Assembly (NCBI GenBank): GCA_021735655.1
Contig: JAIPGM010000001.1
Location: 96,001 to 160,000 of the forward strand
Direction of reading: 5' to 3'
Source: Candidatus Omnitrophota bacterium
GTDB lineage: Bacteria; Omnitrophota; Gorgyraeia; Duberdicusellales; 4484-171
Length of the DNA: 64,000 nucleotides
In this document: positions 9,001 to 63,000 of the stretch, one piece after another
How positions within the stretch are numbered: the first letter of the stretch is position 1
How the letters are laid out: the number at the start of each line of letters is the position of its first letter
Position numbers and translations under genes: made by a program
Notes under the pieces: generated by a model
The model's input: the letters and a program-made list of their open reading frames with translations, nothing else
Told to the model about the DNA's origin: nothing
The model's database searches: none

Positions 9001-12000
9001 TGGATTTTTAGAAGGAAAACAGCTTTCGAAAATGATGATTGTTAATATGGTATTTATTATAGCCGGTATAGTTATCTGGCAGAGTCCGCCGATTCTTTGG
9101 TCAGCCTTATTTATCTTGCTTCCTTTTGCGGCTTACTTTTATCCTAATATGTCTAACCCGGGAGCATTACCGATAGGCGTTACTGTCGGTAGATGGCTTG
9201 AGATATATAAATCTGATCTTTCTTTATGGCGCAAAACCATAGCTTCTGATAATCCTCTTTGGGAAGGTAAGAAATTAGACGTAGTGCTTCACGGAGCAAT
9301 ATTATTTCCTGTATTATTAATAGTCGGTGGTTTTATAGCTCTCTTTATTAAGTTACCGGTTACCGTAGGCCGTTGGTTAAATTCTCAATTTTCTGACCGA
9401 GGCCATGTAATCTCGACCTGGGCTATTAATTTGATTGGTGCGGTGTTTGGTGTGGTTTACTTAGCCAATATGTTGGTTGATAAATTACCTCAATTGGGCA
9501 ACATCATTGAAGCTTCACCGATGGCTGCGGCAATAGTTGCGGCTATAGTTATTGCTCGAGTCCTTCTTTACATTGGAAGTTACTTTTATAATTTGATCGC
9601 TGCCCGTTCTCATCAGGGAGTAAGTGAGGCAGTAGCGGCTTTAACTTTAGCTGGAATTATTCTTGCTGGGTTGAAGTGGGGTTTAGCGCTTAAGGCTTTA
9701 GTAGTTGGCTGGTTTAGCTGGTTACCAGCTTTGTTAGCTAGTCCGATTGGCCCTTGGGTTGCTGCAGTCTTATTGGTCCTTGCAGTCGCAGCAATTGTAA
9801 TTATTGCTTTACCGAGACGTATGCAAACTCATCCTACAGTACCGGCTTGGTTTGTTATTATGGGTGGTTTAGGTTTGCTACTAACAACATTAGGGGTACC
9901 AATAGTGATAAATACCCTTACTATATTTGCTGCGATTGCAGTGGGTTCGTTTGTTAATGGAATAGTTGCTCAGGATTTACCAAGAAAGGCTAAAGAGAAG
10001 AGATTAAAACGTAACCAAGCATTACCTTACCCGGCAACTATGCCAATAACTAATAAATTAGATCGTTCGCTTACTGAAAGTGAAAAAGAAAAAGTTATTT
10101 TAGCTTTTGGCGGAAGCGATGCCTTGGCAACTAATGGTATAGAGTTGAATGATCAAAATCTAGTAATGAGTCCGGCTCTTTCAGCTCCAGCTGAAGTAAG
10201 AGGCGGAGTTCTATATATAAATCCTAATACTTTAAGAGGTCCACCAGAACAGCTAAGAGTGATATTTGAAGGCCATGAATTAGCTCATTTTTTAGGAATG
10301 GATGAAATTCAAGCCAGACAATATACCATCGACTATCTTTTAGCGAATGGTTTACTTGAGAGCCACATTGCTTTCTTAGAGAATAATTCTATTGGTCTTG
10401 TAGCTGATCAGGAATGGTTAGAGGCTTTGAGCCAGAAATCAGTTTCTTTGGATAACGGAATTGAGCTTAAAGTTTATAAGTATAGGCCAGGAGTAAAAGT
10501 TGCTGTTGCTCAGATAGATCCGTCAATTTTACAGCCGCATATTTTAGTTTCCAGTGAGTTGGAAGGTAAGTTGCATTCGGTTGATCGTCGCTCTAACTAT
10601 GTATTGTATTATGATCATGAGACTGGCGAGCGTCTAGATAGCTTTCCTGAATCACGCCTAAAAGTATCTACGGTTACTAGTTTAATTGAAAGATTCCAGG
10701 ATCTTCATCCAGATTCACGAATAGAGATTATTACTGGTAACGAAAACCTTTTCTATAACAAGCCGATAGTTACAGTTATAGCCAATAAAGCTTACCATGC
10801 TGTCGGCGTTGACATAGAGAATCGTAATTATCCTATGCTTGTAATTTGGGCTGACGGTGCAGTAACTATCGAGGAAAGTGTTAGTTTCGAGTTTACTGAT
10901 TTTGATCAAAATGAAGTCAGAGTGTTGATTAATGGGAAAGAAGAAGATATACGCTATGCTACGGTTATCCAGTTAGTTTTAAATAAACAAGGTGTTGTTA
11001 ATCCGGGATCCCAGTTATATTTCTTTGATGATATCAAACATTTATTTGCGATGCCACGATTCAGCTCAGATGACTTTCCAGGAACTTTACCCAAGGGTTT
11101 GATGAGCGGAGCCATATTTTTTATGGCTGATCAACTTCTATCTGAAAATGCCCAGCGTGTAATCGACTATTACGATTCACAAAATCCAAAAACTGTTCAG
11201 GATTTTAATTTAACAAGCACCGTTTTTAGCAGAAGTGCCGATGGCCAAGATCGGGTAAGATTAATCAATATACCAGCAGAGTTATTAGAAGCTAGGTTGT
11301 TTGAAGCCGGATACTTACCTGATGACTATTCTATTGATCAAAGAAGAGGTGTAATTACTATAAAGCTTAGAGAAAATGTTTATCCTTTTCATATTATTGG
11401 AGTTACAAGTGATGGATTGGTGAAGGAGATAGTAGTTAATGGTAAATCTGGTAAGGTTGGTGTCACTGTAAGAGAAGCTGCCACTATTGCTCAAAAAGAG
11501 GGATTAATTAAGGCCGGAATAGTGGATCAAGGGATGACCGTTCGTTTAGATGTGGGTGATTTACGTTTTGGTAATGTTATAGTGGATAAACCTGGGCCTG
11601 AGAGGGCTAGTTCTTTAATCGTTTATACCCATATGCCTCTTGATAATGGTAAACAAAATAGACAATCGCCTCCCAGCGATGATAGATTAGGAGGAAGGGC
11701 TAGCCATAACGTGGCTGTGGCTGGTCCTGCTTCTAAGCCTTTGGATAATGGTCGACCAGGAAAGACCGAATGGAGCGATTTAATGAATCGCGTTGATCGG
11801 GTAAATGGCCTTAGGCAAGATGCACGAATAGCCGTAGTGCTTTATATAGTAGGAGTTGATCAAGAAATCGATGCCGGAACAAGAACAGCTCCTTTAACTG
11901 CCGGAGAACTACTGGTTAATGTTAATGGCGTAGGCCAGATAACTTCACGAAGAATTTTCCGAATAGTCGGTGAATTAAATCTTGCCGGAGTTACTTTAAC

Positions 12001-24000: not shown

Positions 24001-27000
24001 AATTCCTTCATTGCGTGTTCCTTATGATAGTAGTTTTCCGGATGCCTTGTCAGCCTTTGGAGCAAAACTGAAAGCTCCGGTGATGATGCTTGACCATTCA
24101 GCTTGTCATTTTAGCCGGGCACAGCAGCCACTTTTAGGTATGATGTATGACGAACAATATTTGAGATCTAATATCGCTATTAATTGGTTAAATAACCAAA
24201 GAGATCTTTCAGAAGTTACTGATTTGCTTTTAGAAGATACAGTTTTAATAGCGGTAAATGCAAATACATTGCTTAATGGCTCTTACGATCCAAAACATGC
24301 GTCGTTTTTAGATGATTGTGATGGAATCCTCGATCGTAGCCCCAAGGAAACAGTAAGCATCGCCGGTCAAGATACTCCGATTGGAGATGCTTTCTTCAGG
24401 GTTTATGAAGCACGCACTGATAAAGCGATAGCTAGTTATAATGCTGATGCTCAGGCTAAACCTTTAGATAACGGAAAGATAAGTCCAGCCGAACAACGCC
24501 TAGTCAAAGATACACTTTTAATTTCCTATCGAGAAGAAACAACCATTCCGGAAGGTTTCCTTAAAGCGGAAGCTGATTCAAAAAGGTTTGAGGCTTATTT
24601 AGATAAGCAAGTTAGACATATTTTATGGGAAATGAGTACAAATATAATTTTACATGCAGCCGGTAATGGCTCAGTAACTGTTAATCTAGTTACTTTAGAT
24701 GGTCAGTCGGCCTTAGAAATTATTTCTGAGAGTGATGCTTCGGAATTCTCATTAAGTAACTTTTTTGTTAGTTATGATGATTTAGTTAATTTTGCCGCTA
24801 ACCTTAGTAGTAAACATGTGGGATTATTACAGATGATGCAATATGCTGATCGTTTCCGATTTACTCATCGAGATGGCATTTTAACTATTGAAATCGTAAA
24901 GTGGCAAGATCAGACACAACCAAAGGAAATTGCTATTGATTTAGCAGTTGATCAGGCTTCAGTTGAGACAGCCTTAGCTAAAGTTAGGACTGCTCCTAAT
25001 AGTAATCGTCAGCGTTTAGAAATACTTTCTCAAGATAAGGGAGAAATTGGTGCAGTAGCTCAAATTTTTATTCAGAGCATTAGTGCGCCTTTAGATAATG
25101 GAAAGAAACTTGACCCTGAGACCGAACTTAGAAGAATCGCTCAAGAGTTAGATGATTTAGGCTTGGGCCAAGCTGATGTCAGTGACAGTATTGATAGAGT
25201 AAGGGTTGCTTTAGGGCAAGGTTGGTATATACCGGAAAATAGGCCGCATATTGAAATTCTAGGCGATGAGCAGGGGAGGCTTTTACGTGCCTTAGATGAA
25301 ACTCATCTGCATCAAGAGCTGCCGGTAGTCGGAGCCGTAGATACAATAGTTGCAAAGTTGTGTGGTTTTTGTTTTCGTTCGGCTGACGTAGTAGTTTTAT
25401 CGCCCAGAGGAAGGAGAGGTTTCTTTATTCGTCGGGCAATTAAACCATATGAGGGTTATCTTACTTTGGTTGGCGGCGGGGTCCAGAGCGGTAGTTATGA
25501 AACAACCGCAAGAATGGAGATAAGAGAAGAGTTGATTTTAAGCAGATTACCAACTAATCCAATACAGATTATTAGTTATTATATTGCCGTAAAGCACATA
25601 TCTTATCTTAAAGGTGCTTTCTTATTATATATTTTAACTGATGATGAATTAGGCCAAGCTAGGGAATCCAGTCGCCGGGTTAATTCAGCTAAGGTAAATA
25701 AGAGCCGAGGAGAATTTATTGCTTGGTTAGCTCAACAGCGCGATCAGGAAGATGGTACTGGCGAGGCTTTTGGAATTTATGAGATTGATCTTGAAACAGT
25801 ATTTGATCGTCATCTACCGAATCCTGAAGTAGCTGGCGAAATTGGCCTAAGAATTCCTGAAACTTACGTTGGTGGTGAAGTTGAAGAAGAGTTTGCCGCC
25901 TATACCCCGGATATATTACAGTTATTTATGCAAGATCCAGCAAGGATAGCCAGAGCTAAAGAGGAATCCTTGAAACTCATCCGAGGACCTTTAGATAATG
26001 GAAAAACCCAGCAAGAAAGGAAACGTATTTTAGCTAGAGCTCGGTCAATCAGAAATACCAACCACGATATTGGTAATCATCTAAATGGTTTGCTAGGCTG
26101 TTTGAAAGAATCCAAAGAAATTGAAGAAGCTTATGCGATTTTTGGAAGATTTTCCGCAGACATTGCTGGTTTAAGAAAGTATCGCGAAGGTGGCGAGGCT
26201 GTTACCGATCAAGTTCTTGATGAAATAGCTCAGGCTTGTGATCATTGTGAAGCATTATTGGAAGAGTTACGTGATAAACTTCTTGAATTTGAATTTATCC
26301 GGACTATGGGTATTGACGATTTGGGTGAATGTTTTAGTCATATGGATCTAGAAATAAGAGGGTGGTTAGTCCAGGCAACCAAAGATGCCTATGATGTAGT
26401 TTTAATGTTGTTACATGACGAGATAGCCATTTTTAGTGCAGTTGAGGCAATAACTTTTATAACTCGAAGAGAGGCTAGCGAAGAAGAACTTGAGGTTCCC
26501 GAGATAAGGGTCAATCCTGAAGGTAGTCGAGTTATAGTATCGATAAACAGTCGTTACTTTTTAGGAATTTTTATGAATATCATCAGGAATTCTTGCACAG
26601 TTTGCAAGGGAATGTCTGGTCCGTTTGCTTCGATTGAAATTGATGAATCAGGAGAAGAATTTAAAGTTGTGGTTCGCGATAACGGACCGGGCATGAATGA
26701 TGCTCAGGTGCATCAATACAATCTTCAAGCGGTCGGTGATCTAACGGCTGTTACCGGAGTAATTTCTTCAAAGCCAGCCAAGGTACATGCTGAATCAAGT
26801 GGCTACGGCCGAGGCCTAAAAGAAGTTATTGCTGATATTGTTTTGCTTGGTGGGCGTACTTTTGTTGAGCGGTTATCAGCCGGAGGCATGCAAACCGTAG
26901 TAATTTTACCGAAACGACAAATAAAGAAACCTTTAGATAATGGCAAAAAATCTTTAAAATCTCGCCTAGCTGAAGCCGATACAGTAATTATTCCTACGCT

Positions 27001-30000
27001 GGTTGGTTTAACTGAGGGTCGAATTACTATGATAGTAGGTGATAATTTTGTGTCTTCTTACCAAACAGTTTTAGAGTTTTTAAATAGTGAAAAAACTAAC
27101 ATAACCGCTCTAAAGACAATATCAGGAGTTTTAAGTGAATTTTTCTTCGACGGTCATCCTAAGGCGGTAATGGTAGGTGAAGCTGATCTAGAGGCGGTGG
27201 GTATAGTTTTACCTGAGAGTGGAATAATTGATCCATCCAAAGATAATGTAGACATAGATGATTTAAGACAAAAGATCCTTGAGCTGCGTGATGTCATTGC
27301 CGGGTTTCCTTTAAGTCAAGTTGAAGAGTTTGAACAACATAAGTTTGATACCTTGGCTGACAATAAAAAACAAAAAATAGACGAAGATTTAACCGTATAT
27401 GCTAATACTCATATCTTTGACCTTAGATTAAGGGCAAAAAATGAAAGTGAAGTTGTGGTAAGAACTTTTAAGAATTCTCCGGTTGTTTCAGATCAAGTAG
27501 AGATTTTGGGAGTTGGCCCGGAAACTATCCAAACATGGTCAAGAATAATAGAAGCTTCAGAATTAATTGCTCTTTTTGGCCAGTTCCCTCAAGAATTAAC
27601 TCCAGCCTTAGAGGATAAAGTTATAGTGAAAGTTGCTGTTCCGCTTGATAACGGCCGGAATAGTTCAGCTGATACAACTAACCAGCTATTAACCCAACTT
27701 GAGCAAATGGCTCGCGGTCAGATTCCTGACGCTCAAGCCAGTAAAATAATTAAACAACTTTTAGTTTTGGGTACCGAGCGTTCGGATGTCCAAAGAGCTT
27801 TATTACTTTACAGTCGCCTGAGAGAGAAGCCACTCGATGGTTTATTTGATAATTATCATATAAATGGTGTGCCGGTAAGATTAGCAAGAGATCAAGAAGT
27901 CGTTTATATGACTAGAACCGGAAAAACTTTTAAACAGGTTTTTGGTGGTAAAAATATTATGGTTGTCGAAGTCCATCCGGATGACGCTATGCTTAATTTT
28001 GGTGATCTTGCCTTTGCTTTAAAAATGTATGGCGATAGTAATACTATTTTTGCTATGGCCATACCTGATCCAGCCGGAGTTTCTGATTATCAAGTAGATT
28101 TTATCAGAGTCCTTTACCTGATTAGTGAGTTTCTTGCGTTCTCAAAATCTGGGGATTTCGTAACCAAAATTGCAGAAAACCCTTTTATGAATACGAGTTC
28201 AAATGTATTAAAGTCTTGGATTCGGAGCGCTGAAGCTAAACTTGGGTCTGATTGCATGGCTCAAGGTGAATATGTAGATTTAGAGATAAACTTACCGATT
28301 GATCAAGCAGCTCGTGATGAATCTGGCCGATTGTTATCATTTGAGACTATATTCCAGGAACCAACTGATGAAGATCAAGAAAAAGTAGATAATTTAGTTA
28401 AGCAGCATTCCGATAGAGATATCTATATAGTTCCATCTCCGTTTTCGAATCATCCGCATCATCGAGCAATAGCCCGGATATTTTTATCAGCTATTTATCA
28501 ATTTAATCCGAATGCCCAGATATTTCTTTGGGATGATGATTTAAGTTTTAGACAGCATCGAATGAGAGCAAACACATTCTATTTCTATAGTCAATTAGAA
28601 CAGGCTCATAAGGAGAAATGGATTGAAAAAATTTATGATTCTCAAATTCTAAGAAGAGGTAAGGGTTTTTATGCCCAGCGAGCCGAACAAATAGCTTTAG
28701 CTGCGGCTGATGCTGGATTTAAAGAGATGATATTTGAGCGTGGCGATGTAGAGGCTTTCCTGGTTATTTTGGCCCATGAGCTTTTTTACGCTGAAAGATT
28801 ATTAAAGGTGAACATTGTTGAACGGCCAGCAGGTAGGCCTCTCGACAACGGTCGTCAATCAGATAAGGTTCAAGAAATAAGCTTTAGTGATAGAGTAGCG
28901 CTCAGACTTTTAAGCTTCTTGCATTTAATTAGAATGCCTACTTGGATTGTTTGGCATCTTACGCCAATTCGTTTTCGGGGTGGAATATTAGTTAGCGGCG
29001 GTGATTGTGCTGGTCTTAACCCAGTTGCCGGATATCTTTCGCGTTATCTTTGGCAAGATGGCCATATGCTAGCCGGGGTTAAAAAAGGCTTAGATGGCTT
29101 GATTAAAGCTGACCCAACTTCTGAGATTGTTCCAATAACTAGGGGAATGGCTAAGATTATGCCTTATGCTCCGAGTTTTGAATTTGCTTCAACCCGCAGG
29201 AATTTAAAAGAGGGAGAAGCTGAGACCGCCGTAGCCTTAGATAATATCCGTAAGAATTTTGGATTTTTAGTAGTTATTGGCGGCAATGATCATCTTTATG
29301 AAGCTAAAAAATTAGGTGAATTATTGGAGAAGGCCGGGTTAAAAGTTATTGTAGTTGGCGTGCCTAAAACAATTGATGCTGACACTTTATACACTAAACC
29401 CTTAGGAATTGAGTCAGCTGCCCAAGCGGTGAACGAATATGTTTATCGGGCAGCAGCTTTACCGGGGTCAGGCGAAGTAGTAATTATTGAAGCTATGGGT
29501 CGGGATTGCGGTTATTTAGCAGCTCGGGCCGGAGATAGAAGAGATGAAGCGATCGCCTTACTTGGTGCCGAGTTAGCCGAAAAAGCCGAAAAAGCCAAGC
29601 CAACTATGGAGACTTATGTTCCCGAGCATCCTAAAACTGTAGCTGAAATCCGCCGCCGGGCTAGAGAAAAAATGGCTAAAGTCGGAGCAATAACTATTAT
29701 TCTTTCTGAAGGTTTTAGAATTAACCAAACAGATGATCCGGACTATGGACCATTGCTAGAGGCTAATCCAGTATTAGCTGAAATCCTTAGAGGGCTTAAG
29801 CCTGACACACAAGGAAATATTGTTATTCCACAAGGTATTGCTGCTGAATTTGTCGCAGCTATTTTAGCCGAATATAATCCGACAATAGAAGTATTAGGTT
29901 TTACACCGCGCGGGGCTATCCCGGTTGATCAGGAAAGAGAGCTTGCTTCCGGTTTTGCCCGTCAAGCTAGAAAAGCTATAGTTGAAAGAATCAGTGGCAG

Positions 30001-45000: not shown

Positions 45001-48000
45001 CGTTGAGCGTGTATTTATGGAAATAGCTTCAACTAGCAGCCGTTATGTATTACAAAGTATAGTTTGTGCAAAGTTAAGAGAAAAAACCGGGGAAGGTGAT
45101 ACTTCTTCAGCCAAGCGTCAGTCAGAACAAATTTGGCAAGAAATTATAGCTGAGCTAGAGGCTGAAGCTTTTCCAAATCGAAAACCACTTGATAACGGCC
45201 GCGATGGTCAAGCTGATTTAGCTCGTCAACAGTTAGCTGAAAGTTTGAGAGGGCGCTTGACCGGATTGCTAGATTCTGGTCTTAATCCGGAAAATAGCCT
45301 ACTTGTAACTCATGTTGGTCGACCGAATAAGGCTGGCACGCTTAGGGGTTTGGGTTTACGAGTTTACGAGATGGTTATTCAAGGAGTCAATAAACTTTAT
45401 TATGACCGACGGACTGTAAGAACCATCCCTTTATTTTCTAATAGTTTAGATTGTCCTTATCCTGGTGGTTATCATTCCCAGGGTGGAATGCTTACACCGG
45501 AGGCTAGGCAGGATATTGTTAGCCGGGGAGATGTTTTTATTCTAAGCGGAGGTGAGCTTGAAATATGCTTGCAGATGACTTTTAGCGAATTAATCGATGC
45601 TTTAAATCAAGCTGGAAGAACTACGGTGATATTTGTTCCGCTTGAAGCAACTAGTAGATTTATAAATTTAGAGTCGGCAACCGGCTATGCTGATTATTTA
45701 AAAAGCCGAGCGATAAGCTATGAAGAGTATGATTTTACTAAAAACGAGGTAACTCTAGCTCAACCGGCTACGCCACAGGTATTATTAGTTTGGACTAAGA
45801 CCGCTCAGGAAACTCTTTATTGGTTAGATTTCATAGCTAGGCATCAAAGACTTGTTGCTGAGAAACTTATTGAATCTTTGGGCTCAACTGAGGCAAATGT
45901 ACGTAAAGATGCCGCCGCTAGAATAATTACTATTGCTAAATTAATTGGTCACAACCAAGAAGATAATATATTTGGTCGTCATCCTTTAGATTGGCTTTAT
46001 GGTCATGATGACCATCGCCAGACTACGCCGCAAGAACGCAGGCTTTTATCGGAAGTTTCTTGGTTTCCTTCTGATGCTGTTCATCGAGATGAGGAGCAAG
46101 TACTTTTAACCAATCGCCGAAGAGTAAAAAGCAGAGTAACTGAAGTAAGAAAATCTTTAAGAAATAGGATTTTGTTTGACGTTAAGGCAAAATTGGAATT
46201 ATTAAAACAGCGTTTAGCTGATTCTGAAATTCAGGCTGCAGTAGATTTGGTAAGCTTTGGCTTTGATTCAAGTTTACCGGATCAAGGATCACGCAAGATA
46301 GCTGTTCTTAGAAAATTAGAGAGAAATCTCCAAGAGCTAACTACCCAGATAGAAAGGGCTAAAGCTTCTGGTAGTATTGGAGTGATAATTGTGCCTTTAA
46401 TTGATGAGGCTTTAAGTAGTCTACGGCGGCACGTAAATACGATTAGACATTGGTCGGATTATAAAAAAGGAAGCTATGTGCTTAGGCAGTTAGTTGATTG
46501 GATGGTTCGAAAGCATTTTGAGCCGCAGCATGCTCAATATCGGCAGATAAAATCAGCTAAAGTTTTGGGACGAGTCGATAACGGAGATGAAAAATTTTGG
46601 CAACTTCCGATTTGGCCGTTGGCTGATAACGGTGAGGTTGATTTAGGCTTAACTGGCTGGATGCTTACTTCGCGACAACGGGCTCCGCCAGAATATTTTC
46701 AAAGAAGAAAAGTTTCCCTAGCCGAATTAGCTGGTTTAAAACCAATCCAACTTACCTTATTTAATCTTGATGATTTTACTGGTTCTGGGCAACCCTTAGA
46801 TAATGGCCGAGTGCCTCTCGATAATGGTAAACCTTTATTAGAAAATAGAGATAAACCTAAAGAAACAGGCAGCCACCTTAGAGTAATGCTGGGTTTTCTA
46901 AGTCCGATCAGAGATGAAACCAAAATAGATGAACCCTTGAGTATTTCCGTGTTAGCTGGAGTATTAAGAGATGAGTTTAAGGGCACGGTAGACGTTGCCA
47001 CGGTCCACCCTCTTGTTGAAAAGGGAGGCCTTGAAGGGGTAAAGGAAAGGATAAGAAAAGAACAGCCGGACATCTTAGGATTATCTTTGTTTTTTGGTAG
47101 TTTAGATTATTTAAGAGAATTAATGGCTTATATACGTACTTTGCCAGAAGAAGTTAGGCCTTTAGTGATACTTGGCAATGTGTTGGCTAAATATAATTTA
47201 GGATTGATTTTAAAGGAATTTCCAGAAGTTGGAATTTGTACTGGAGAAGGAGAAAATACTATACGAGATTTTGTGCGTTATTACCGGGGGGAGATGGGTC
47301 TTTTGCAGATTACCAATTTTGCCTATATACATCAAGGGGTACCGAGAGTAAATTTACCTCAACAACGCACTGATTTGTCTGATATTGGAATGCCTCAGCG
47401 GGATATTTTTTCTCACGTCATCAGAACCGGCGGGGTCGTATTTTTAGAAACAAGCCGTTCTTGTTCGCATAATTGTGCAATGTGTAGTCGTAAGACTTAT
47501 TTGGAAGGAGCAGAATTTTCTCAAGTAGGTTGGCGTGGACGTCCGCTTGAGGATGTCATAAGAGATATGGCTGATGTAAGTCGTCAAGGAGCCAGATTTG
47601 TTAATTTCGTTGATGAAGATATTTTTGGTGGAGGCCTTGTACGGGTTATGGAGCTTGCCCAGAGAATTATTTTTGCTAAGGCACGAGGCGAGATTCATCC
47701 CGATTTAACCTTTGGCAGTTCAGCTAGCGTGAGATCAATCTATGTCCAACCAGAAGGTGATACTAAAGCTAGGGCTCAGATTGAAGCCGATAACGAGCTG
47801 AGGATAGAGGCACTTACAAGATTAAAACAAGCTGGCTTAGTGGTTTTATTTACAGGTATCGAGTCAGGTTCTCCTACTCAGCTTGCTCGATACGGAAAAG
47901 ATGCCACAGTATTTGAAAATGAAATGGCCTTACGGATAATCGATGAAGCAGGCATACACAATGTTCCTGGTTTTATTATGTTTGATCAAAAGGTCACAAT

Positions 48001-51000
48001 CGAGGAGCTGCGAGAGGATATTGCATTTTTACGAAGAACCGGGATGGATAAAAAAATTACCTATCCGCTTAGAACTTACTATCCTTTAAGGGGTGCTATG
48101 TGCACTGATCAACTGGTGGTAGATGGTCTTGTGGATGCAGAGCGATATAATGCAAGTCAGTTAGCCTATGAATACGTTTATGAGGATCAAGATGCTGCTA
48201 CTTTGTTGTGGGCTTTAAAATCTTGGGAAAAAAGCCAAATGCTATTCTTTTGGATTATTAAGATAATTTTTCGTTCTTCACGGTTTGGTGAGCTATCACC
48301 GGAGACACAAGCATTATTCAAAGAGGTTATGGCTGATCAAACTGTTATTTTACTTGATTATTTGGAAGATTTAGTTAATTGCTCATCAAGTTCTCAATAC
48401 CCAGAGATTGATCTTAGATATAGTGATAGATTAATAAATACCATGCTGTCTATTTTAGGCTTAATTAACGAAGGTCAGCTATCTATAGATGGCTCACATC
48501 TTTCGGAAGTTATTTACGGAAGCATAACCAGGGAAATCGTCCGTGTGCATCTTTTACATTTGCCATTTACTTTAAATGATATTTTTGAAATGGTAAAAGT
48601 AAGGTTTGGTGCTGAACTTAGTCTGCCTATGCTCAAGAGAGCTTTAAGCAGCTTTGTGAACGAGGGCGCTATGGAGTATTGTGAAGGCAGGTATTCATTA
48701 ACAGCTAAATTTTGGGATTTAAAAGGAATGCCTTATTATGATTTGCCAAGACCATACCGAGGAGGCGAATCTAACCTTGCTCAAGCGAGTTTACCAGTTC
48801 CACATCTTGATGTATTTAGGCAAAGAGCAGGCATTTTAGAGTTAGAGGTAGCTTATAACCAAGTCAGAGTTTTTGGGGAAGTATTATACGCTGCAGTTGG
48901 TTTTATCCTTTTTGCTATAGTTGGTGTTTTGATTATCCATACTTTGGCTGGAGGGTTTGTGGTTGGCTTTTTCGGATTAGTTATATTTGTTTATTTTTAT
49001 TCCAAATCGTTTCCTAAATCAAAATATAAAATAGTTGAGCAAGGGTTGAAAATGTTTAGTGGTCAAAGAATTGGTAGCCAAGATTTCATAAAACTATCTT
49101 TGGTGTTTAGGGACCTTTTAGCTGATGATTGCGATAATATAATAATACAACTTCTTGCTCGATCGGGAATCGAAGCAGCTAATGAGCTTGCCCAGAATAG
49201 GTACCTAGAGGAAACCTTGGGCGTGCAGTCTCCCCTTGATAATGGTAAAGATCCCTTTCTTACAGTCGATATTAGCCAATTGCCAGGAATGCTGTTAAAT
49301 AGAAATTATCAGAAAGCAATTGCAATATTTGAGAGCTTAGACGTTTTTAAAGACGGTGACGCTTTGAGAGACTTGCTTTCTGGCTTCAGGGAAATGTATG
49401 AAAATAATTACGATTTCAGGTCACGTCTTCTAGAATGTTTCATCCATTTATATGAAACCCAGCGCCAGCAGTGGTCTAAGGCCGAAAGAACCTTAAGGGT
49501 AATCTATGAACAGCAGACAGCTGAGGAAGATTTATCTTTGCTGTGGGTGAGGAAAATTGCCGTTGATATTTGGTCTGAGATTGCAAGTAGAGAGATAAAA
49601 CTTTCTGATGAACAAATGGTACCGGTTGAACAGGTAGGAGTTGATCTACAGGTAACTGAGGTCTGTTGCTATGAGTGTCCTTGGTGTTTATATCATCACA
49701 CGCCAAAAGGCCCGGCCCGGAGAAACCTTCACCGTTTAAGCGAAGCCGAGGCCGTAGACATAGTCAGTCAGTTTATGGAGGCAGAAACCTTTTCTTTGGC
49801 GCCGTTTAGTTTCACCGGCGGGGAACCTTCAATGAATCGGAAAGTTTTATTTGCTGCTCTTGAGGCAGCTACCCGACGTCAGCAAGCTGGATTTATTAAT
49901 GTATTTAGTAATGGTATTTGGGCTCGAGACGTAGAGGCTGCTGAGCGTATGCTAAACGCTCTTGCTGAGAAAGCAATCATCAGACTGGTTATCAATAGTG
50001 GGCTTTTGCCCGAAGGCCTTGAGCGGATTAAGCATATTGTTGACGCTTACGGCAGATTGGATAGTTCAATACAATACCGCATAGAACTTGGTATAGCCGT
50101 TCCTTTATTGGGCGATGAGATTATAACTTATCTTGAATCAGTGCGGCAAGCGCTTAAGGGAAAATTTCTTATTCAGCCGTCTAATGGCGCTATTACTGCC
50201 GTAGACATGTTTGAAATGTATCATTTAACAAATTGTAAGGTTGGTATTCAATTGTCTAATAGTCGTATTCTCATTATACATCCTGAATCGATTGCTATAA
50301 GTCATGCTAATAAGGGTCGCCTTGCTTTAAGAGAAAAGCAGATTGAAGCTTACCGGCTTAACCGCCCGGTTTGGTCGTCATGGCAAAGCAATGGGTCGCG
50401 CTATGTGCAATTTGTGGCGCAAAGTGACCTTTGGGTTTTAGCTAATCCTTTTTTCTGGGGCTATGGCAATCCTCGGCAGTGGAGTTTTGATTTTATGAAT
50501 GTTAGTCAGCTACATGAAGCCTATCAGCGTGATCCGCTTTGGCAGATGCTTTCAACTGTGCCAGCCGAGGAGATTATAGAACAAATGCGGCAGCTTTTTG
50601 TCACAGTCCCTCAGGGCGTTGATCGTTGGTTATCTGGTCTTCATGCGGTCCATCCGATTGCTAGCAGTTTTGCCGCTGAACTTTTACAGGATTCGCGCGT
50701 GCGTTATTGGCTAAGAAGATGGCATAGTGGTGATTCAGTTAATGAGCCATATCCGGAGTTATTGATGCCGGAATTAAGTCAAAAACAAAATTCACCTAAA
50801 TCAATTCCTTTGGATAACGGCCGAGTGCCTCTTGATAATGGTAAACCGTTCATGCAAAAGTTTAAACCTTCAGAAACTCTAGGCTATTCAGTGATTAACG
50901 GTCCTAGACATAGAGTGATGATTATTAATGTTTTGCCGCAAGATAAACAAGCTTCTTTAGAAACTCAAACTCAGAGCATAATTTCACAAGTAGATTCAGC

Positions 51001-54000
51001 CTTAGCTAGAGAGGGTTTTAATAATAGTGATGTGGTTAAACAGGATATGTTTTTACGTGATCCGAGCCAAAGACCCGAGGTTAAAGAAATGCTAGGTAAT
51101 TATTATGGAAGGGCGCCTCCGGCAACCAGTTTTATTCATCAGCCGCCGATAACCGGTGAGCTAGCTGCTACTGAATTGATTGTCATTAAGGGGGAGGGGG
51201 TCCAAGTCTACCGAGTAAATAAATATGCAACCTTAATTAATGCTGACGGACTTTGGATGCTTTATGTGGCTGGAATTGAACCGGATGCTAATTTAACTGA
51301 TACCTATCAGCAGGCCTATAATACTTTTTTAAAGTTACAGACTGTTTTAGAAGAAGTTAGGCTTGGCGCGGTAAGCTTTAAATTTGAAGATGTAATTAGA
51401 ACCTGGCTTTTTGAACGTGAGATAGTTGGTTTTGATGATCAAGAAAAAACTCAAGAGAGATATCAAAAGCTTAATCAAGCCCGACGCGTTTTATTTGATA
51501 CGGCTGATTCTGGATCAGGGGTTATTTTTGGCCGTCGTCTGCATTGTCCATCTTCTTGGCTTCTTTCCTGGCGAACGAGGATTGCTTTTTGGTTTTTAAA
51601 GTTTTCTTTTACTCATCGAATAAAGAAATTCGAAAAAATATTATTCAAATTAGCCCGAGTCAGGCCTCCGGCTTCAACCGGAATCGGTGCTTTGCCGGAA
51701 TTTCAAGCCCAAGGAATAAACGTTGCCATTGGTCCGGCTTTTGTTTTTGAAGCTTTAGCTTTGTTCGCTGAAAGTAATCGAGGCGATGTTTTAATTCAGT
51801 TTATTGAAAACCCCGAACAAACTCCGGCTCATGCTTATTCCAAAAAAGTATTACCCAAGGGAGAAAAGAAAAAGAAAAAAGCTTCCCCGGCTTTTAGCCG
51901 TGGTATGGCTGTATTTATGGATTACATTTGGATAATCATTTCTGGAACAGCTTCAGTTAAAGGTGAAAAGGTAGTCTCTGTTGGTGATGTAAGAGGTCAA
52001 GCTGAGACCACGATTGATAATTTAAGATTAGTAGTTGGTCAGGCTGGAGCCCAGTTAAAAGATATACCGCAATTAAGAGTGTATATCAAGAATTGGCAGG
52101 ATTATCAGACTGTAAGGTCGGTAGTTGAAAAGCATTTTCCCGATACTCCGGCCCTATATCTTTTGGCTGATGTCTGTCGGCCAGAGTGGTTAGTTGAAAT
52201 TGAAGCCATGGCTTTTATTCCTCGAGAAGAAGGGGTTTCTAAGCCTTTAGACAATGGTAAAAATAGAATTCGGCAAGGTGAGATCTGGTCTCCTCACCGT
52301 GGCTGGCGGGATCCAGCTCCCTTGCCGGATTATATATCTGTTCCGCTCGACAATGGCAAAAGAACTCTAGATTCATTGCCAACCAGACTCAGGGTTTTCT
52401 TAAGACTTAATAATATTGATCCAGCTAAAACTTATTTATTTGCCATGAGCGGCGGTGATTGTGCCGGGCCAAATTCAGCTTATTATGGTGCAGTTAGAGA
52501 GGCTGATAAATATGGTTATAAAGTATTAGGGGTGTTGAATGGTTTTGAAGGGTTAGGGGCTAATCCGGATTTATTCGTTGATCAACTTATTTATATTACT
52601 TCCGAAGGCATTGAGCGATTAAAAGGAATGCCGAGTATTCATGTTGGGTCTTCTCGGGCTAAATTTAAGGATAAACGCGAAAATATTTTAGTTAATTGCG
52701 CTGCTTTTGCCGGAGTAATTTTTGTTGTTGGTGATGACCATTCTAAGCAAACCGGCGAGCTAGCTGAAAGCGGCATAGCAACTATAGCTATTCCCAAAAC
52801 TATTGATTATGACTTTTTGGCGGAATCTTTAGGGTCACATAGTGCTATTTCTGAGGCCCGGCGACTTTACCTACGGGCTCATCGCATGGCCCAAGAGGAT
52901 CATTTTGTTCAAGTTATTGAATTTATGGGACGTGATGCTGGCTGGCTAACCTTTTTGGCAGCTCAGCAGGTTGCTGGAGCTAACTTTATTCTTCTCCCGG
53001 AAAAAAGCGCTGGCTTTAAGGATGTTTTAATTAAAGCTTTGTCAGTTATTTTAGAGGAAGGTTATTTGACTATCGCTATGGCTGAAGGTTATAGCTTTAG
53101 AGATTTCCAGGAAAAAGATCGTATCTTTGGAGGGCCGCTGTTTTATAAATTCTTAGATATTATACCGTTTCTTAAGGCTAAATTTTATTCTAAAGGCCAA
53201 ACCGATGTACATGGTAACCCCAAATTATCAGGAATAGCTGAGTACTTGTCTTTAGCTATTCGTTATTTGCCACGCTTGGCCAAGCATGATGCCGATATAA
53301 ATAGGCTTTATCAAGCGATTAAACTTAAGTACCCACATTATTTTGGTACTGACTTGCGTTATAAGGCTAAGGGCGAGGTAATGCAGAATGTTCGTTTATC
53401 GATTTTAGGCTATATTTTAAGAGGCCTTCCTTCAGATGATTACGATACTAGATTGGGAGAGGCTTATGGAAGAGCCGCAGTTAGGTTACTTCAGGCCGGA
53501 AAAAGCGGTTTAGAAGTTACAATTAGTAAAACTTGTACTTTGCGTTCATCTAGTTGGTTAAGAGCTATTCTTAGGGGGGAAGGGGTGAAAGCTGTTCCAA
53601 TAGTTGAGGTAGCCATAAAACAATATGTGGCTAAAAGCGATGATCCGGCTAAGGCGGCTATAGCTTTTCATCTTAGCGATAAGAAAATAGCTGAGGCCGG
53701 GGTTTGGTGGCAAGGCTCCCAAGAACTTATTACCCATAAAAGAGTAAGTCAGCTAGTCCGCGAAAAAGATTTAGGCCCGAGCCCGCGCGAACAGGCGCGC
53801 AGATCTCAATATAGCGCAGCTATTTCAGCAGCCATCCATACTACAACATCAATTTTCGGTTTTAGAAAGGTCGATGGTTTAGATTCAGATGATTTAGCTC
53901 TTTATGCTGGCGATCAAACTCCACGCGATAAGAGTTTGCTTCCGGGACATAAACAGTATTGCTTGGCTGAGACCAAAGGCAGTACCATGATTCTTTTAGC

Positions 54001-57000
54001 TAATCCTTTAGCGGAAGTTAGATCGCCTTATCTGCGTGATTTACTACTTGATATTTTAGGTAAGATGACTGAGCGTGTTAGTTTCATTGATGAAAGTACC
54101 CGAAGGCTTGTTCAACGTAAGATGCGTGGTTATGTTAATTTAGTAGTTTCCGATAAGTTTTTATTGAGAGATTTTACTGAATCGACAGATTTATTTTCAA
54201 AGCTCTTATCTTTAGATCCAGTATTAAAGGCTCGCTATGAGTTTAATCAGTATTTTTTCGATCACGGAACCCCGGGTTTTATGGAGCTAATGTGCACATT
54301 AGTTTCAGCAATTACTCACTTGCCACAACTAGCTCAAGGTGATCCAGAGTTAATTGATGCAGTTCAGAGACTTTATGCGAATCGACCAGAGGTGTTCGGT
54401 AAAGATCCTGAACGCAAAGGTGAACTTATCTTAAAAAGTTTACGCCTTAATATGCCCAATCAGGTTATCGGAAGGAAACCGACTCCTTTAAGAGAGGCTG
54501 ACCTGCGACGTAGCGGAGTTTGGCTAGGTCGTCAAAAGCCGCTTGATAACGGAAAAGCAAAAGTAGTTTTAAAGCCAGGAAATATGGATTACCATTTAAG
54601 TGTGGCGCGGAATACTCATTTTAGCAATGCTGCTTCCAAAATTGTTCCTTGTTTTTTAGATAATTTAGCTAAGGCTCAAATCAAAGGAATGCATAAAGAA
54701 ATTAGTGCGGTATTAGTCCATGACGATCAGGGGAATATTCCGATTTTTGCCTCGGCTGATCGGGCCAAGCTAGATGGTTTTGCAATTAATCATTCTTTGA
54801 TTGCTCAGGCTTCTGGTATTCAAGTAGATAGAGGTTTTGCTCGAATTGTGCTCTTTTTTAGAGTTGAAGATGAAAAAGCCGATAGTGTAGCCATATTTCC
54901 TAATTCTTTTATAGATAAAACTGAGTTACTTAGTAAAGATTTAGACATAGCTTTTAGAGCCAAAGCTAAATTATTCGGTGATTTTTCAAAAATTGCTTTG
55001 TTAATTAAGGAAGTCTTTCTCCAGATGGGTTATACTCCAGAGTATATTGACACGATTTGGCTTTCTAATTTTGATGGCGGGGCTTTCGGGTTTAGTAATC
55101 CACGGAAAAAAGTTAAGACCTTTGGCGATGCTTTAGCTTTGATTGAGTTGATGACTACCTTAGAGACACAGATACCTTTAGATAATGGTCGTAAGACAAA
55201 TGATGATCAAGCTAAATCAGAGGGTGTCAGCCGTCGCGATTTCGAGATTAGATCTCTTCTCGGTGGGCTTTGTGCCTTTTGTGGTGGAAGCTTGCCGGAG
55301 TTTGCCGGTGCTGCGGCTGGTTCAGCGGCAAGCCTATCGGAAATTCAAGCTAGACTTAAGGTAATGAAGTTATTTGAACAAGGAGTCAGAGATTTATTAA
55401 TTAATGGAGGTATAGTTGCTCGGCCAGCTTTTATCAGTCCAGCTGAGTGGGGTATTTTGAATTTTGATCTTTACCGTTTTAATTTAGTCCAAGTTATGGA
55501 TGATTGTGGTGGTTCTATGAATGCTGCCGAGCGGGTTGCTCAAGGGGTTAGAGACTTTGCCCAATACGTTAATGATCCGCGACTACAAAGATATTTTTCA
55601 CAGCAAGCTCGAGAGAAATTAGTTCAGCAGAGAAAGGATAACAGCCAAATTAGAAGAGAAATAGCTGATATCAAGATTTTACTTGAAATAGCTCGAGACG
55701 CCTACCATCACATGAGTTCGCCGGTAGATTTACCGGGAATAGTTAAGCAATTAGAATTTGAGTTATTTCTTAAAAGAGGGCAAGTCGGTTTTAATTCGGC
55801 TAGTGTTAAGTTGGAAGCTTTGTTGGTAGATAAAAATGATGAGCCTTTGGATAACGGAAGAACTATTGACCAGCAAAAAACTATTCTAAGGGAGCAGGTA
55901 CCGAGTCTTAGCGATAGAGCTCACTCAGCTAAACTCGCCGCAATTTATTCAAATCGTTTAAATGCTAAATTATCTGACAAAGGTTGGGGTATGCCCGGTG
56001 ATCTTAGGTTAGTTAAGGGAATAACCCTAACCGTAAACAGAGTTATTGCTCCTTGTTATGAGCTGTTTTTAAATATTATGCGTCACGGAAGGGGTGGAGA
56101 ATTTAAGGCGGATTATCGTCAAGGTTGGCTGGGTGAAAAAGAATTAACGGTTGTTGGTTTTGACCAGGGTTTGGGTATTGCTAATCCGGATCAGCTTTTC
56201 GCTGATAAGTTAGAGCTACTAGCTATTGCTGAAGATACAGCTGATTTAGACAAGAGGGAATTAAGTCGAGGAATTGTTCATATCGTGCTTGATCCGGACA
56301 GCGTGATGCTTGAAACCAGAGGCATAAGGTGGGCTAGGTCAATATTAGATGTTGAAGTTCGTTCAGGATTGTTTATGCCGGTAGTTACTTTGCAGCCGAG
56401 AGGCAAAAGTGAGGTTAATAAAGGTTTACGTTGGACTTTGGGATGGAAGAGGCAAGCCAGTCCTTTAGACAACGGCAGACAATCTCTGATTCCGGCTTTA
56501 GCTGCTGCTGAGCATATACCTTATGGAGAAGTAATCACAAAAATACTTGTAGTTTCAGGAATGATAATGATAGCTGTAGTAATGCTTAACTTTTTTTATA
56601 TAGTAGTTCGTATACTAATTGTCGAAGTAAATGATTTGATAAAACGATCCAGAAAGAAAACTAAGCCTAAGGGTCTATCGGCCTATGCTCGTTCAATGGG
56701 ATTATATTTTTTAAGACAAAGATCATCTGGCCTAGATAAATATTATGTCAAAGGGTCTTTCTCGCGTTTCTTTAGTGTAGATACTAATAAAAGAAAACCT
56801 AAATCTGGTCACGATAAACCGCTCGATAACGGAAAAGATAAAGACCAGAGTCCAGACAAGCGTATTCCGATAGCAAAATTATTACCACAGTTACTTAAAC
56901 AATCCCAGGCTGAGCTGTCTCAAGGTCCGCCTCATACAATTAGCCAAACCAGTGAAATATTAATGCGAGTTGGCGAGCTAACAGTGTCACTTAGCTACCT

Positions 57001-60000: not shown

Positions 60001-63000
60001 TAGCAAAGCCTTAAAGCGCCAGGTTGGAAATTTAAGCCATGATTCAAGCCCGATTACCGTAACTGAGCCGCTTATTTATGCTGGAGTTGGTCGTTTTCTA
60101 ATTTGCTATAAAGATGAAAATATTGACGATGGCCTAGCAGTTAAAATTGCTAGCAGCGAAGCTTCTTTGCGTAATGCTGATCTTTATTCTTTAAACGGAG
60201 TCCGCATCGCCATTAATCGTTTAGGCACAGGCTTAGCTGCCAGCACAATGATTATTGATGCCCGTTGGCCAGAGGTTAGGTCTTTTGTTTTTAACGTTAT
60301 TGATCAAGCTGGACATCCTAGAAGGATTGAAACTCAAATCGCTATCGTCCAACAAAAAGTTTTACCGTTAATTGAGTATTTAAAACGTTTAGGTCGTCGA
60401 GGCTCTAAGGACCAAGATGTATTAAAGGCAATTACCTATGTTGATAAGTTTAAACAGCTTATAATTGCTATGTATAAACAAGGGGTTATTGATGATGATA
60501 CTTTTAATATTGTGGGAAATTACGGGATATTAAAGGTTAATGATAGTATTGTAATTTTTGATCTCGGTGATCTTTCTGATTCAGCTGATCGAGCTGCAGG
60601 TTTTGTTAGAAATTTAGATAGCTACAACCAACAGATGTTTGAAGCCTTTTTAGAAATAGACGGTGTTTTCCTTGATGAACGGATTGCCGATTATTTTATA
60701 AATAACCCGTTAAAAAGAGAAGATTTTATTTCTGGCCAAGGAGATCTATTCGGATCCGAATACGATCGGGAAAGTTCAAGAATGGTTTTCCCTTACGATG
60801 AGGAAACAGTAAGGATGTGGGGGGTTCGGGCTTTTGATTTAGTAAGCCCCGATACAGAGGCTAGCCAGCAACCACTCAATAATGGAAAAGCTAGGACTAT
60901 TTCTCGTTTTGAACAAGAAACTAGAACTGAGCCTTATCTTGTTCCTGAAGCTGAAGGCGTTGTATATCAAGCAGTGGCTAAATTTTTTAGAGCTAATGGA
61001 GATAGCCAGACATTTAGAGTTCTAGATCTTTTCAGTGGAGCCCATACCTATATACCGACCTTGAACCAAGTTCAGGTTGAAGAGTGTATTGGCGTAGGCA
61101 TAAGGGCGCAAGAGTTAGAATTGAATCCTAACTTAAAAGGTAACCCTAGCTACTTAGTTTTAGATTTAAATCAGGATAAGTTGCCTGAGCAGTGGAATCA
61201 GCGTTTTGATTTAGTCTTAGTGGTTAACGGGGTAGCTTACGTTGAGGATCATTTCAGATTATTTGCTGAGGCTGCAACTGTGACTAGACTCGGTGGCAGA
61301 TTATTAGTTGTTTTTACTACTGAAGCCTATTCTACCGAGATTTCAAAAACTTGGAAATATTTAGGTAGCGGTTCTTTAGGCCAGAGAAATAAAATTAGAC
61401 ATATTAGTGAATCAATAGCTAGAGTTCGCCAGTTTGGGCCTGTTGCCCATGGACATTTTACTTATACCATTCAACATGGCTTAGATATTTATGATAAGCC
61501 TTTAGAAATCATTACTGCGGTCAGAAAGAGTAGTGCTATTCCGCTCGATAACGGTAAAGTGCGTTTGCCGATAAGTCCTTTGAGGTTAGCTTCGTTAGTA
61601 ATAGTTCCCTGGTTTGCTATCGGATTATCGATTTATTTTGGTGATTGGTACGTTGATACAGTTAAATCATCGGATTTAAACGCAATGTTAGTTAAAGGGT
61701 TTTTAGGTGGTCTAGCTTGTGGTTTTGGGATGTATGTAAAGCAGACAATTAGTGGCCAAACCCTGAGCCGTAAAAATTTCGGAAAGATACTTCGTTGGAC
61801 TTTAGCCGGATCAATATATTTAGGTTTAATTGTTTTTGGTGCCTGGTATGGATTTTTGAAAGCTAATGTTCCCAGTGATGTTTGGAAGGTTATTTTAGAT
61901 ATAACTTTATTTTCAGCTTTCATCGGTTTACCGCTAAACTATTTAATTCAAAGATATATTGTTGACTATGACAGCTACCGTAAAAAAACAATTAAAAAGC
62001 ATATTGTTAATTATCTACGTCTTTGGATTTTTAATGCCAGCTGGTGGGGATTTTGGTTAGGCCTTTCTTGGTCACTTTGGCCGGATAGTATCGACCTTAT
62101 TGTGGCCAATGTAAGGATTATTTGGTCCGGCATATTTATTTATTATCTTAGTGAGTGGGTTGAATCTGGTTCAAGTAGTCTACAAGCGTCATCTAAACCA
62201 CTCGATAACGGCCATCAACCGCGTAAAATTATTTGGATTAATTTTGGTGGTTGGCGCGGCTATTGGTTTGCGGCAACCGGCATTGAAACTTTAGCCGGTT
62301 TTATTGAGAAAAATTATTCCGGCGAGTTAGAGCAGGAAGTTTTTTATTATAACCCTAGCCAGATTACTCAATTTAGCGAGCATCTAAGTCAGGCCTCAGC
62401 TGATTTTATTTGTTTTTCAGTTAATCCGATGTATTTTGATTTGGCTATGGATTTTGCTCAAGAGATTCAAGCTAGTTTAGAGGCTTCACCTAACACGAGA
62501 TTAGTTTTTGGTAACCGGGGAATATCTGGCAAGGAAGCAGCAATCCTAAAAGCTTTTCCTGAAGCTTTAGTAGTAACCAACGAAGGTGAAGAAGCTATGC
62601 TGGGAATTGTTAAAGGCGACGCCCGAGAGTCAATTCCTAATCTTTGGTATGTTGATCAAAACGGAGAAGCTAAATTTACTTATCCTCAGGTACTTTCGGC
62701 AGCTGATTACGTGGCTCCTTCTAAAAATATTCGCAAGATCAATGAACAGCCGCTTCCTTGGTATCAGGATGTTGGCTTTGTTGAGGGAACTCGTGATTGT
62801 TCAAAAGCTAGTTCGCGGCCTTGCACTTTTTGTGTGCATAGTTGTCGTCGAGCTCAGATACCAAAAAATCAATGGCGCTTGCTTAATGTTGCTGAGACTT
62901 TAAAGAGTATCGAGGCAGAAGTTAATTCCGGTAAAAGTACAATCAACATTGTAGCTGAAGATTTATTGGGTAGCGATCCAAAGCAAGTAGAACTTTTATT

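Follow-up and report, generated by a model that had tools for sequence, protein, structure and literature searches.

A hexapeptide repeated 53 times at unit boundaries in a giant Omnitrophota reading frame is a candidate processing site

Giant bacterial proteins of 10,000–147,000 residues have been catalogued since 2022, and giant proteins of the “multi-enzyme metabolic cluster” and Archaeovorin types have been described from the Omnitrophota (10.1101/2023.11.21.568195; 10.64898/2026.06.07.730766). The papers on these proteins report no recurrent boundary motif or linker and state that the cleavage points are unknown (10.1101/2023.11.21.568195; 10.64898/2026.06.07.730766), and they are regarded as single chains anchored in the membrane (10.64898/2026.06.07.730766). 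In the main survey, the authors noted that the lack of information about cleavage points prevented them from splitting giant proteins for structure prediction. Here, we analyze 64,000 nucleotides of DNA from a Candidatus Omnitrophota bacterium (GenBank assembly GCA_021735655.1, contig JAIPGM010000001.1, positions 96,001 to 160,000 of the forward strand), which we call the window. A single stop-free open reading frame (ORF) spans the window, and the peptide PL[D/N]NG, usually followed by lysine or arginine, occurs 53 times in it, at the boundaries between the encoded enzyme units.

Like the described giant proteins of Omnitrophota, this gene is a single ORF that runs to tens of thousands of codons and encodes membrane helices along with many divergent enzyme domains (methyltransferase, HATPase_c, HAD, radical SAM, NUDIX, and sugar metabolism). 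It also shows the features of giant multi-enzyme class 1 (Nielsen & Lui 2026): at least 10,000 codons, many families with none of them dominant, and membrane helices (as judged from hydropathy). The Archaeovorin-type giant protein has a SecA-DEAD-like domain and an N-terminal C39 or S8 peptidase (10.1101/2023.11.21.568195). We did not find SecA-DEAD, C39, or S8 domains in the window, but the ORF continues past both of its ends and might encode them there. A preliminary description of this DNA, made from the sequence alone, drew no link between the gene and the giant multi-enzyme proteins known from the literature. Judged from its sequence, the gene belongs functionally with them: multi-enzyme giants are known, and it is the exact junction code that is new. 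The preliminary description knew of no described system with this punctuation. We found none in the papers on giant proteins, and a literature search for “PLDNG” returned no relevant paper.

In viral polyproteins of the picornavirus, potyvirus, and flavivirus types, conserved protease sites lie at the junctions. By analogy, the punctuation would work most like these sites. In both cases, a single frame encodes heterogeneous mature proteins, a short conserved sequence marks the junctions, small spacers lie between some of the sites, and the protease may be embedded in the chain. Unlike the viral polyproteins, the gene in our window is cellular and encodes housekeeping metabolism, its 53 sites are far stricter than most viral sets, and its protease is only a candidate. 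A cellular case is provided by the plastid-targeted polyproteins of Euglena (RBCS and LHC), in which conserved linker decapeptides are excised by a dedicated peptidase (PMC4938576). There too, the units are parted by a near-identical short linker, but the units are the same or closely related and there are about eight of them, whereas our gene is of the prokaryotic type and joins about 45 different enzymes, its linkers are unrelated to those of Euglena, and its site is stricter.

Repeated recognition sequences are also found in the multi-core precursors of ribosomally synthesized and post-translationally modified peptides and of other peptides, and Asn-Gly is the classical bond for legumain (asparaginyl endopeptidase), as in the precursors of plant cyclotides. 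In those precursors, as in our gene, a repeated invariant recognition sequence brackets each cassette. The cassettes here are instead whole enzymes, and we detected no maturase domain in the window, whether of the C13, S8, or another type. Double-glycine (C39) leader sites have Gly-Gly, Gly-Ala, or Gly-Ser at positions -2 and -1, and C39 domains are reported in giant proteins of Omnitrophota. Our motif resembles these sites in having a hydrophobic residue at -4 and glycine at -1 (L-x-x-G|), but this type of site is ruled out because position -2 is asparagine in all 53 copies, and there is no C39 match in the window. Two other known signals were also rejected. A sortase signal (LPXTG-like), which precedes a hydrophobic helix and a basic tail at the C-terminus of a protein, does not fit because a hydrophobic stretch follows only 5–6 of the 53 motifs, all of them internal, and the 2A/StopGo peptide (D(V/I)ExNPGP) does not fit because PL[DN]NG[KR] has no NPGP.

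A peptide motif in a giant reading frame

In a six-frame translation of the window, frame 2 of the plus strand has no stop codons from base 2 to base 64000 (21,333 codons), while each of the other five frames has 1041–2590 stops. Neither the start nor the end of the gene is visible in these 64 kb. Because the frame is truncated by both ends of the window, the gene must be longer than 64 kb. All of the features that we describe are on the plus strand, and their coordinates are positions in the window.

The preliminary description had reported at least 53 in-frame copies of P-L-D-N-G-(K/R) at irregular spacings of 21 nt to about 3.6 kb. We obtained the same count: there are 53 copies of PL[DN]NG, all of them in frame 2 of the plus strand. 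They are 21–3600 nt (7–1200 amino acids) apart, with a mean of 972 nt, and they run from amino acid 3879 (nt 11636) to amino acid 20733 (nt 62198–62215). Fifty of the copies are PLDNG and three are PLNNG. The next residue is lysine in 29 copies and arginine in 17 (46 of 53 in total), and it is T, Y, I, V, V, Y, or H in the other seven. The copies in this array (nt 11636–62215) start at nt 11636, 11738, 12002, 12563, 12686, 13538, 15650, 16127, 18122, 18446, 22046, 22640, 23624, 24461, 25088, 25988, 26930, 27641, 28838, 30869, 31454, 31718, 32516, 33785, 34376, 35033, 36473, 36602, 37211, 39137, 39185, 41672, 41891, 43025, 45185, 46793, 46814, 49232, 50807, 50828, 52244, 52343, 54539, 55175, 55844, 56462, 56819, 57584, 59096, 59783, 60872, 61541, and 62198.

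Given the composition of the ORF, just 0.015 copies of PLDNG are expected, and every other 5-mer occurs at most three times. P, L, N, and G are invariant across the 53 copies. Outside of the motif, the flanks are not conserved, save for a weak preference for lysine at -1 and for polar residues within about four positions. Besides the three PLNNG copies, there is only one variant with one mismatch in the entire ORF (SLDNG at amino acid 3482), as compared to 1.3 expected by chance. In other words, the motif is all-or-none, with no decaying copies, and this absence of degenerate copies implies that purifying selection acts on five or six residues in each of the 53. No copies are present in the first 3,878 codons of the ORF, so the motif is not an effect of the gene's composition. 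A composition artefact had been named as a possible way for the preliminary description to fail, but there are no copies in those 3,878 codons or in the other five frames, and a profile search of 1.84 billion proteins was clean as well (see below).

The codons for the motif vary synonymously at every position: four proline, five leucine, two aspartate, two asparagine, and four glycine codons are used. Because of this variation, the conserved object is the peptide and not a DNA repeat. Furthermore, paralogous modules that are just 25–29% identical align from the first residue of the module and retain the motif. Together, the synonymous variation and the retention in diverged paralogues indicate selection on five or six amino acids in each copy, as the preliminary description had argued when it set aside a CRISPR-like or recombinational repeat. 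We also found no Rfam match, and a DNA-level repeat (CRISPR, REP, or recombination site) is ruled out, as the variation is only at synonymous positions. Repeats at the DNA level are confined to the motif codons and to a few recent segmental duplications. For example, nt 11636–11752 and nt 12563–12700 have 89–91% DNA identity. These duplications (which include nt 12678–12738 versus nt 15642–15702; 85–91% DNA identity overall) contain a motif, a spacer of 34–41 amino acids (QNRQSPPSD...GRASH.VAV.GPASK), and a second motif, so motifs and spacers were copied together as units.

One of the codon choices stands out. The rare leucine codon CTC is found in 11 of the 53 motifs (for instance, at nt 13541, 16130, 28841, and 52346), as compared to 1.4 expected from its usage in the ORF (p ~ 3e-14). 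The motif codons CCT (proline) and AAC (asparagine) are enriched as well. Translation kinetics or a common ancestry of the copies are possible explanations. There is no trough of rare codons around the motif; only the leucine codon deviates.

Motifs coincide with unit boundaries

The preliminary description had proposed that the motif marks the boundaries of domains, and two kinds of evidence bear this out. First, we identified 19 domain envelopes from Pfam and NCBIfam that cover 22% of the region, and none of the 53 motifs lies inside them (P ~ 2e-6 for random placement). The other evidence is from alignments to stand-alone homologues in the Protein Data Bank (PDB), which start 8–40 residues past a motif and stop about 9 residues short of the following one. 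For example, PDB chains of guanylate kinase (186–187 amino acids; yeast) reach from residue 2–3, which aligns 8–9 amino acids past a motif, to an end that is about 8 amino acids before the next motif. Residue 1 of the homologue is about 9 amino acids past a motif for protein-L-isoaspartate O-methyltransferase (PCMT), about 20 for E. coli PfkA (aligned to the module at nt 52343–54538), and about 38 for the fructose-1,6-bisphosphatase GlpX. The C-termini of FkbO and RidA are about 9 amino acids before the next motif. Hydropathy dips around the motif only from -5 to +12, which corresponds to a short hydrophilic stretch. The motif, its conservation at the level of the peptide, and its coincidence with unit boundaries are all observed directly.

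The reading of the motifs as delimiting about 50 modules is supported, with two caveats: nine of the inter-motif segments are only 7–88 amino acids long and are spacers rather than protein modules, and some of the modules have two domains (HAD with methyltransferase, or HExxH with PEP-utilizer). Two of the nine short segments correspond to the tandem double site PLDNGRVPLDNGK (nt 46793–46831, with a second tandem double site at nt 50807–50845), and another two are the paralogous spacers of 34–41 amino acids.

Beyond the N-terminal part, the ORF is predicted to encode a chain of mostly soluble enzyme units. It is tiled by about 15 distinct families, and none of these occurs more than twice (according to Pfam and NCBIfam). 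In the order of the chain, a HAD phosphatase begins 10 amino acids past a motif and is followed by a class I methyltransferase (nt 13538–15649). A histidine-kinase core follows at nt 25988–26929, and its HATPase_c domain ends 4 amino acids before the next motif. A PIG-L/LmbE-like module (nt 27641–28837) has a paralogue at nt 41891–43024 that aligns from the first residue of the module. The first phosphofructokinase (PFK) module (nt 28838–30868) has its paralogue at nt 52343–54538. After PCMT (nt 31718–32515; E = 2.6e-22), a module opens with a twin-arginine/lipoprotein-like signal (nt 32516–33784), and guanylate kinase is at nt 34376–35032. The class II fructose-1,6-bisphosphatase GlpX (nt 37211–39136) has a weak TPR match at its C-terminus. 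The remaining examples are an alpha-glucan phosphorylase-like module (nt 39185–41671), a B12-binding radical-SAM module (nt 46814–49231; a distant paralogue begins at nt 62198), and an FkbO/RidA-like module (nt 50828–52243). The families also include PEP-utilizer/PtsI-like, NUDIX, a second methyltransferase, and two further radical-SAM-like units.

The two PFKs (25% identical) and the class II fructose-1,6-bisphosphatase (FBPase) are encoded in one polypeptide and catalyze opposing reactions; their amounts would be locked in a constant ratio if the units were neither separated nor regulated. Also, the PCMT module shares a chain with 53 invariant Asn-Gly dipeptides, and Asn-Gly is the dipeptide that is most prone to form isoaspartate; this may be a coincidence or a functional link.

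Processing and its alternatives

We estimate that there is about an even chance that a cellular polyprotein is processed at PL[D/N]NG(K/R) in a sequence-specific manner. As in processed polyproteins, distinct units are encoded in one frame, a short conserved sequence is found at the junctions, and the termini of homologues adjoin these sites. Under this proposal, the window would lie inside a giant gene for a membrane-anchored multi-enzyme protein of the Omnitrophota kind. After or during translation, a dedicated endopeptidase would recognize the exposed hexapeptide and would cut the chain at Gly|Lys/Arg or at Asn|Gly. This would release about 45 separate enzymes along with small spacer peptides, and some of the released units would use newly freed N-terminal Tat, lipoprotein, or signal-anchor sequences.

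Given that five residues are invariant in 53 copies, that the flanks are free to vary, and that there are no degenerate copies, we expect that the motif is recognized by a binding pocket and is not a passive linker. Processing is also favored because the units are complete enzymes and because tandem sites and spacers of 7–43 amino acids are typical of processed precursors. Furthermore, PFK, RidA, GlpX, and phosphorylase are obligate homo-oligomers in other organisms, and PFK and FBPase oppose each other. On these grounds of enzyme biology, released proteins would fit better than a chain with a fixed 1:1 ratio.

Signals that resemble targeting sequences also favor processing because they sit directly past motifs. 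The twin-arginine-like pattern [ST]RRxF occurs just three times in the 21,333 amino acids, and two of these are 2 and 12 residues past a motif, with a hydrophobic stretch next. The Tat/lipoprotein-like sequence SRRSFGFMVTALGVGSFLTVC, which includes a lipobox-like cysteine, is 2 residues past its motif (nt 32516–32600). The second Tat-like start, SRRDFEIRSLLGGLCAF (SRRDFEI...), is 12 residues past its motif (nt 55175–55290, in the module at nt 55175–55843). Of the five strongest hydrophobic helices downstream of amino acid 3879, four are within 50 amino acids past a motif and resemble signal anchors. Overall, a hydrophobic stretch is next to the motif in only 5–6 of the 53 cases, all of which are internal. 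Tat and Sec targeting signals normally require a free N-terminus, so the Tat-like signals directly past motifs imply that free N-termini are formed.

Which protease might be responsible? We searched the window with regular expressions for the signatures of serine, cysteine, and metzincin proteases and found nothing, which leaves two HExxH domains as the sole candidates. HExxH occurs only twice in the ORF, both times within a paralogous domain of about 150 amino acids. Copy 1 (amino acids 3340–3490; nt 10019–10471) lies directly past the last membrane helix of the N-terminal part, and copy 2 (amino acids 6170–6330; nt 18509–18991) begins 23 residues past the motif at nt 18446. The two copies are 39% identical and share the pattern HExxHxxGxDE...FLENNSxG. 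In the predicted structure, strands are followed by the HExxH helix and by further helices, which fits a zincin, and the top matches from Foldseek (non-significant) are minigluzincins and BlaR1. These domains may be zinc endopeptidases from a new zincin family. In gluzincins, HExxH is on a helix that comes after a beta-sheet, and a glutamate further downstream is another ligand. Enzymes of the zincin type tend to be selective for the residue that follows the cleaved bond, so lysine or arginine after the glycine would fit a zincin.

Several results weigh against processing. Cleavage, the bond that is cut, and the enzyme that cuts it are all inferred. No recognized peptidase family was found in the window by Pfam (at E ≤ 1) or by NCBIfam (at E ≤ 0.1). 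The HExxH domain has no homologues among 5.8 billion protein clusters. Its structure was predicted with low confidence (pLDDT 59.6), and neither of the two fold searches gave a significant match. The internal hydrophobic signals could instead be the signal anchors of an uncleaved polytopic chain. The nearest multi-enzyme relatives, P0001 and P0002 (with modules that are 41–55% identical), do not have the motif at homologous boundaries, so the architecture of giant proteins does not need it. Finally, no orthologue of the gene was found in searches by protein, profile, locus, or DNA pattern.

A bolder version of the processing hypothesis, which we consider possible but doubtful, is that this bacterium expresses much of its central metabolism (PFK, FBPase, glycogen phosphorylase, guanylate kinase, PCMT, and radical-SAM enzymes) in the style of an RNA virus. 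A gene of over 64 kb would encode a membrane-anchored polyprotein with an embedded HExxH protease, and at least 53 cuts at PLDNG|K/R would yield about 50 proteins, including exported Tat substrates and lipoproteins. If cleavage does occur, this would be a polyprotein strategy for housekeeping enzymes in a cellular prokaryote, with a very specific new pair of protease and site that might be useful as a tool. Having 53 exact candidate junctions in one gene makes the question of whether giant proteins are processed directly testable. The motif also gives a principled way to split a giant protein into units for annotation and for structure prediction.

Alternatively, the chain might remain uncleaved, with the hexapeptide acting as a hinge (D-N-G-K is close to an ideal type I' beta-turn) or as a docking motif for a scaffold, a chaperone, or a TPR-like or other receptor, so that the enzymes are ordered like beads on the membrane. 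We view this as somewhat unlikely. From peptide design, xNGK is a strong turn former, and the motif does lie in short hydrophilic segments between domains. A docking receptor might be hinted at by the weak TPR match in one module. Neither Pfam nor NCBIfam identified a recognized protease in the window, and giant proteins are treated as membrane-anchored single chains (10.64898/2026.06.07.730766). However, a passive hinge should tolerate conservative substitutions, yet P, L, N, and G never vary among the 53 copies, and there are no degenerate ones. The exact duplication of tandem sites and the spacers of 7 amino acids are also hard to explain with a hinge. For either a hinge or a docking motif, the Tat-like signals directly past motifs are a problem, as they imply free N-termini, and related multi-enzyme proteins do without the motif. 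If the chain is nevertheless uncleaved, then its invariant hexapeptide, with 53 occurrences between domains that are unrelated to each other, would be a docking or hinge element without precedent.

The other alternatives seem less plausible to us. The chemistry of Asn-Gly might act without any protease, either by self-cleavage via a succinimide (as in asparagine peptide lyases) or as a timer, with deamidation to isoAsp/Asp and with the embedded PCMT acting on the isoaspartyl sites. Asn-Gly is the most deamidation-prone dipeptide and is invariant in all 53 copies, and PCMT is in the same ORF. But Asn-Gly is not depleted elsewhere in the ORF (61 observed versus 54.6 expected), so it is not under any special selection as such, and the invariant P and L would be superfluous. 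Also, the asparagine sites that are known to cleave themselves rely on a conserved fold around them; the flanks of our motif are unconserved and hydrophilic. PCMT is a common housekeeping enzyme, and similar sets of enzymes are found in other giant proteins that lack the motif. Overall, we consider this explanation to be improbable. We give even less credence to a co-translational signal, in which the nascent peptide or its codons pause the ribosome or cause it to skip a bond (similar to 2A/StopGo), with units folding or separating while the chain is being made. A location at unit boundaries would suit pause sites, and the excess of CTC, along with the deviating proline and asparagine codons, could reflect pausing. 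On the other hand, 42 of the 53 copies use common leucine codons, there is no rare-codon trough beyond the leucine codon, the motif is unlike the 2A consensus, and 2A skipping is not known from bacterial ribosomes. Last, the motif might be a functionless footprint of how the gene was built, such as a fusion or insertion cassette or a DNA repeat that was inherited with duplicated modules. Some neighboring copies do lie in recent segmental duplications (nt 11636–11752 and nt 12563–12700), and the codon usage of the motif differs from that of the ORF. But most of the modules are unrelated to each other and all carry the motif, the third positions are randomized while the amino acids are invariant, decayed copies are absent, and we found neither an Rfam match nor any conserved nucleotides outside of the motif codons. 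The synonymous-only variation largely refutes this idea, and we consider it very improbable.

Relatives and the N-terminal part

The relatives of this gene are very remote: they match single modules or domains at 23–55% identity. Several of them are long multi-module proteins on metagenome contigs, with adjoining ORFs of over 3,800 and over 4,700 amino acids. The only bacterial match with a taxonomic name is a partial “Candidatus Omnitrophica” protein (23% identity), which was found with the N-terminal part. Protein searches with amino acids 9214–11261 (three distant matches) and with amino acids 1600–3912 (four matches) did not find any protein with the motif, and the distant multi-enzyme relatives do not have a recurrent 5-mer of any kind.

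We also searched for the motif itself. A profile of the 53 sites in context, compared to 1.84 billion representative proteins, did not identify any protein with irregularly spaced copies, although it is uncertain if very long proteins were retained in that library. It had four matches, all of them tandem repeats with no relation to our gene: FN3 arrays (“TPLDNGTxYTFEV”), a pair of low-complexity proteins, and a fragment of 87 amino acids. Since this fragment, with two copies, already scored at E = 7e-4, a protein with three or more copies should have surfaced. We also scanned 596 Gb of genomes and the JGI metagenomes with a degenerate DNA pattern that encodes PLDNGxxPLDNG, and the only matches were chance or low-complexity sequences from actinobacteria. 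No loci related to amino acids 19928–21333 were found in collections of genome, metagenome, or viral contigs, and tblastn of amino acids 18180–20290 against plasmids and phages gave no match. Given the profile, the DNA pattern, and the relatives without the motif, the punctuation appears to be specific to this gene or lineage. Other giant proteins may have a different, membrane-type punctuation: P0002 (JGI 3300041085 contig Ga0452209_031319), a distant multi-module relative, has its own near-identical segment twice, with PAMLFMPELAWVKPAVI and then a membrane helix.

The motif-free N-terminal part of the ORF (amino acids 1–3878; nt 2–11635) includes about 20 strongly hydrophobic helices (19-mers) at amino acids ~1656–3314, which were identified from hydropathy only and without a topology predictor. 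By the same measure, there are a few more hydrophobic helices after amino acid 3314. Amid these helices is a beta-1,3-glucan-synthase domain of the FKS (callose-synthase) type (nt 7202–8695; Pfam E = 2e-55), from a family that is unusual for a bacterium. Its top database match is a plant callose synthase (28% identity), and the next is a partial protein from Candidatus Omnitrophica. A weak match of the NAGPA type lies close to the end of the N-terminal part.

Near the start of the window are tandem repeats of 85 amino acids (255 nt) at nt ~432–1139. These repeats are 66–76% identical, with weaker copies from ~197 to ~1240, and there is a weak hint of an Ig-like domain (FlaF_Ig-like in Pfam) near them. 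Another tandem duplication, of 93 nt (31 amino acids) in perfect register at nt 6549–6734, is 94% identical and looks recent.

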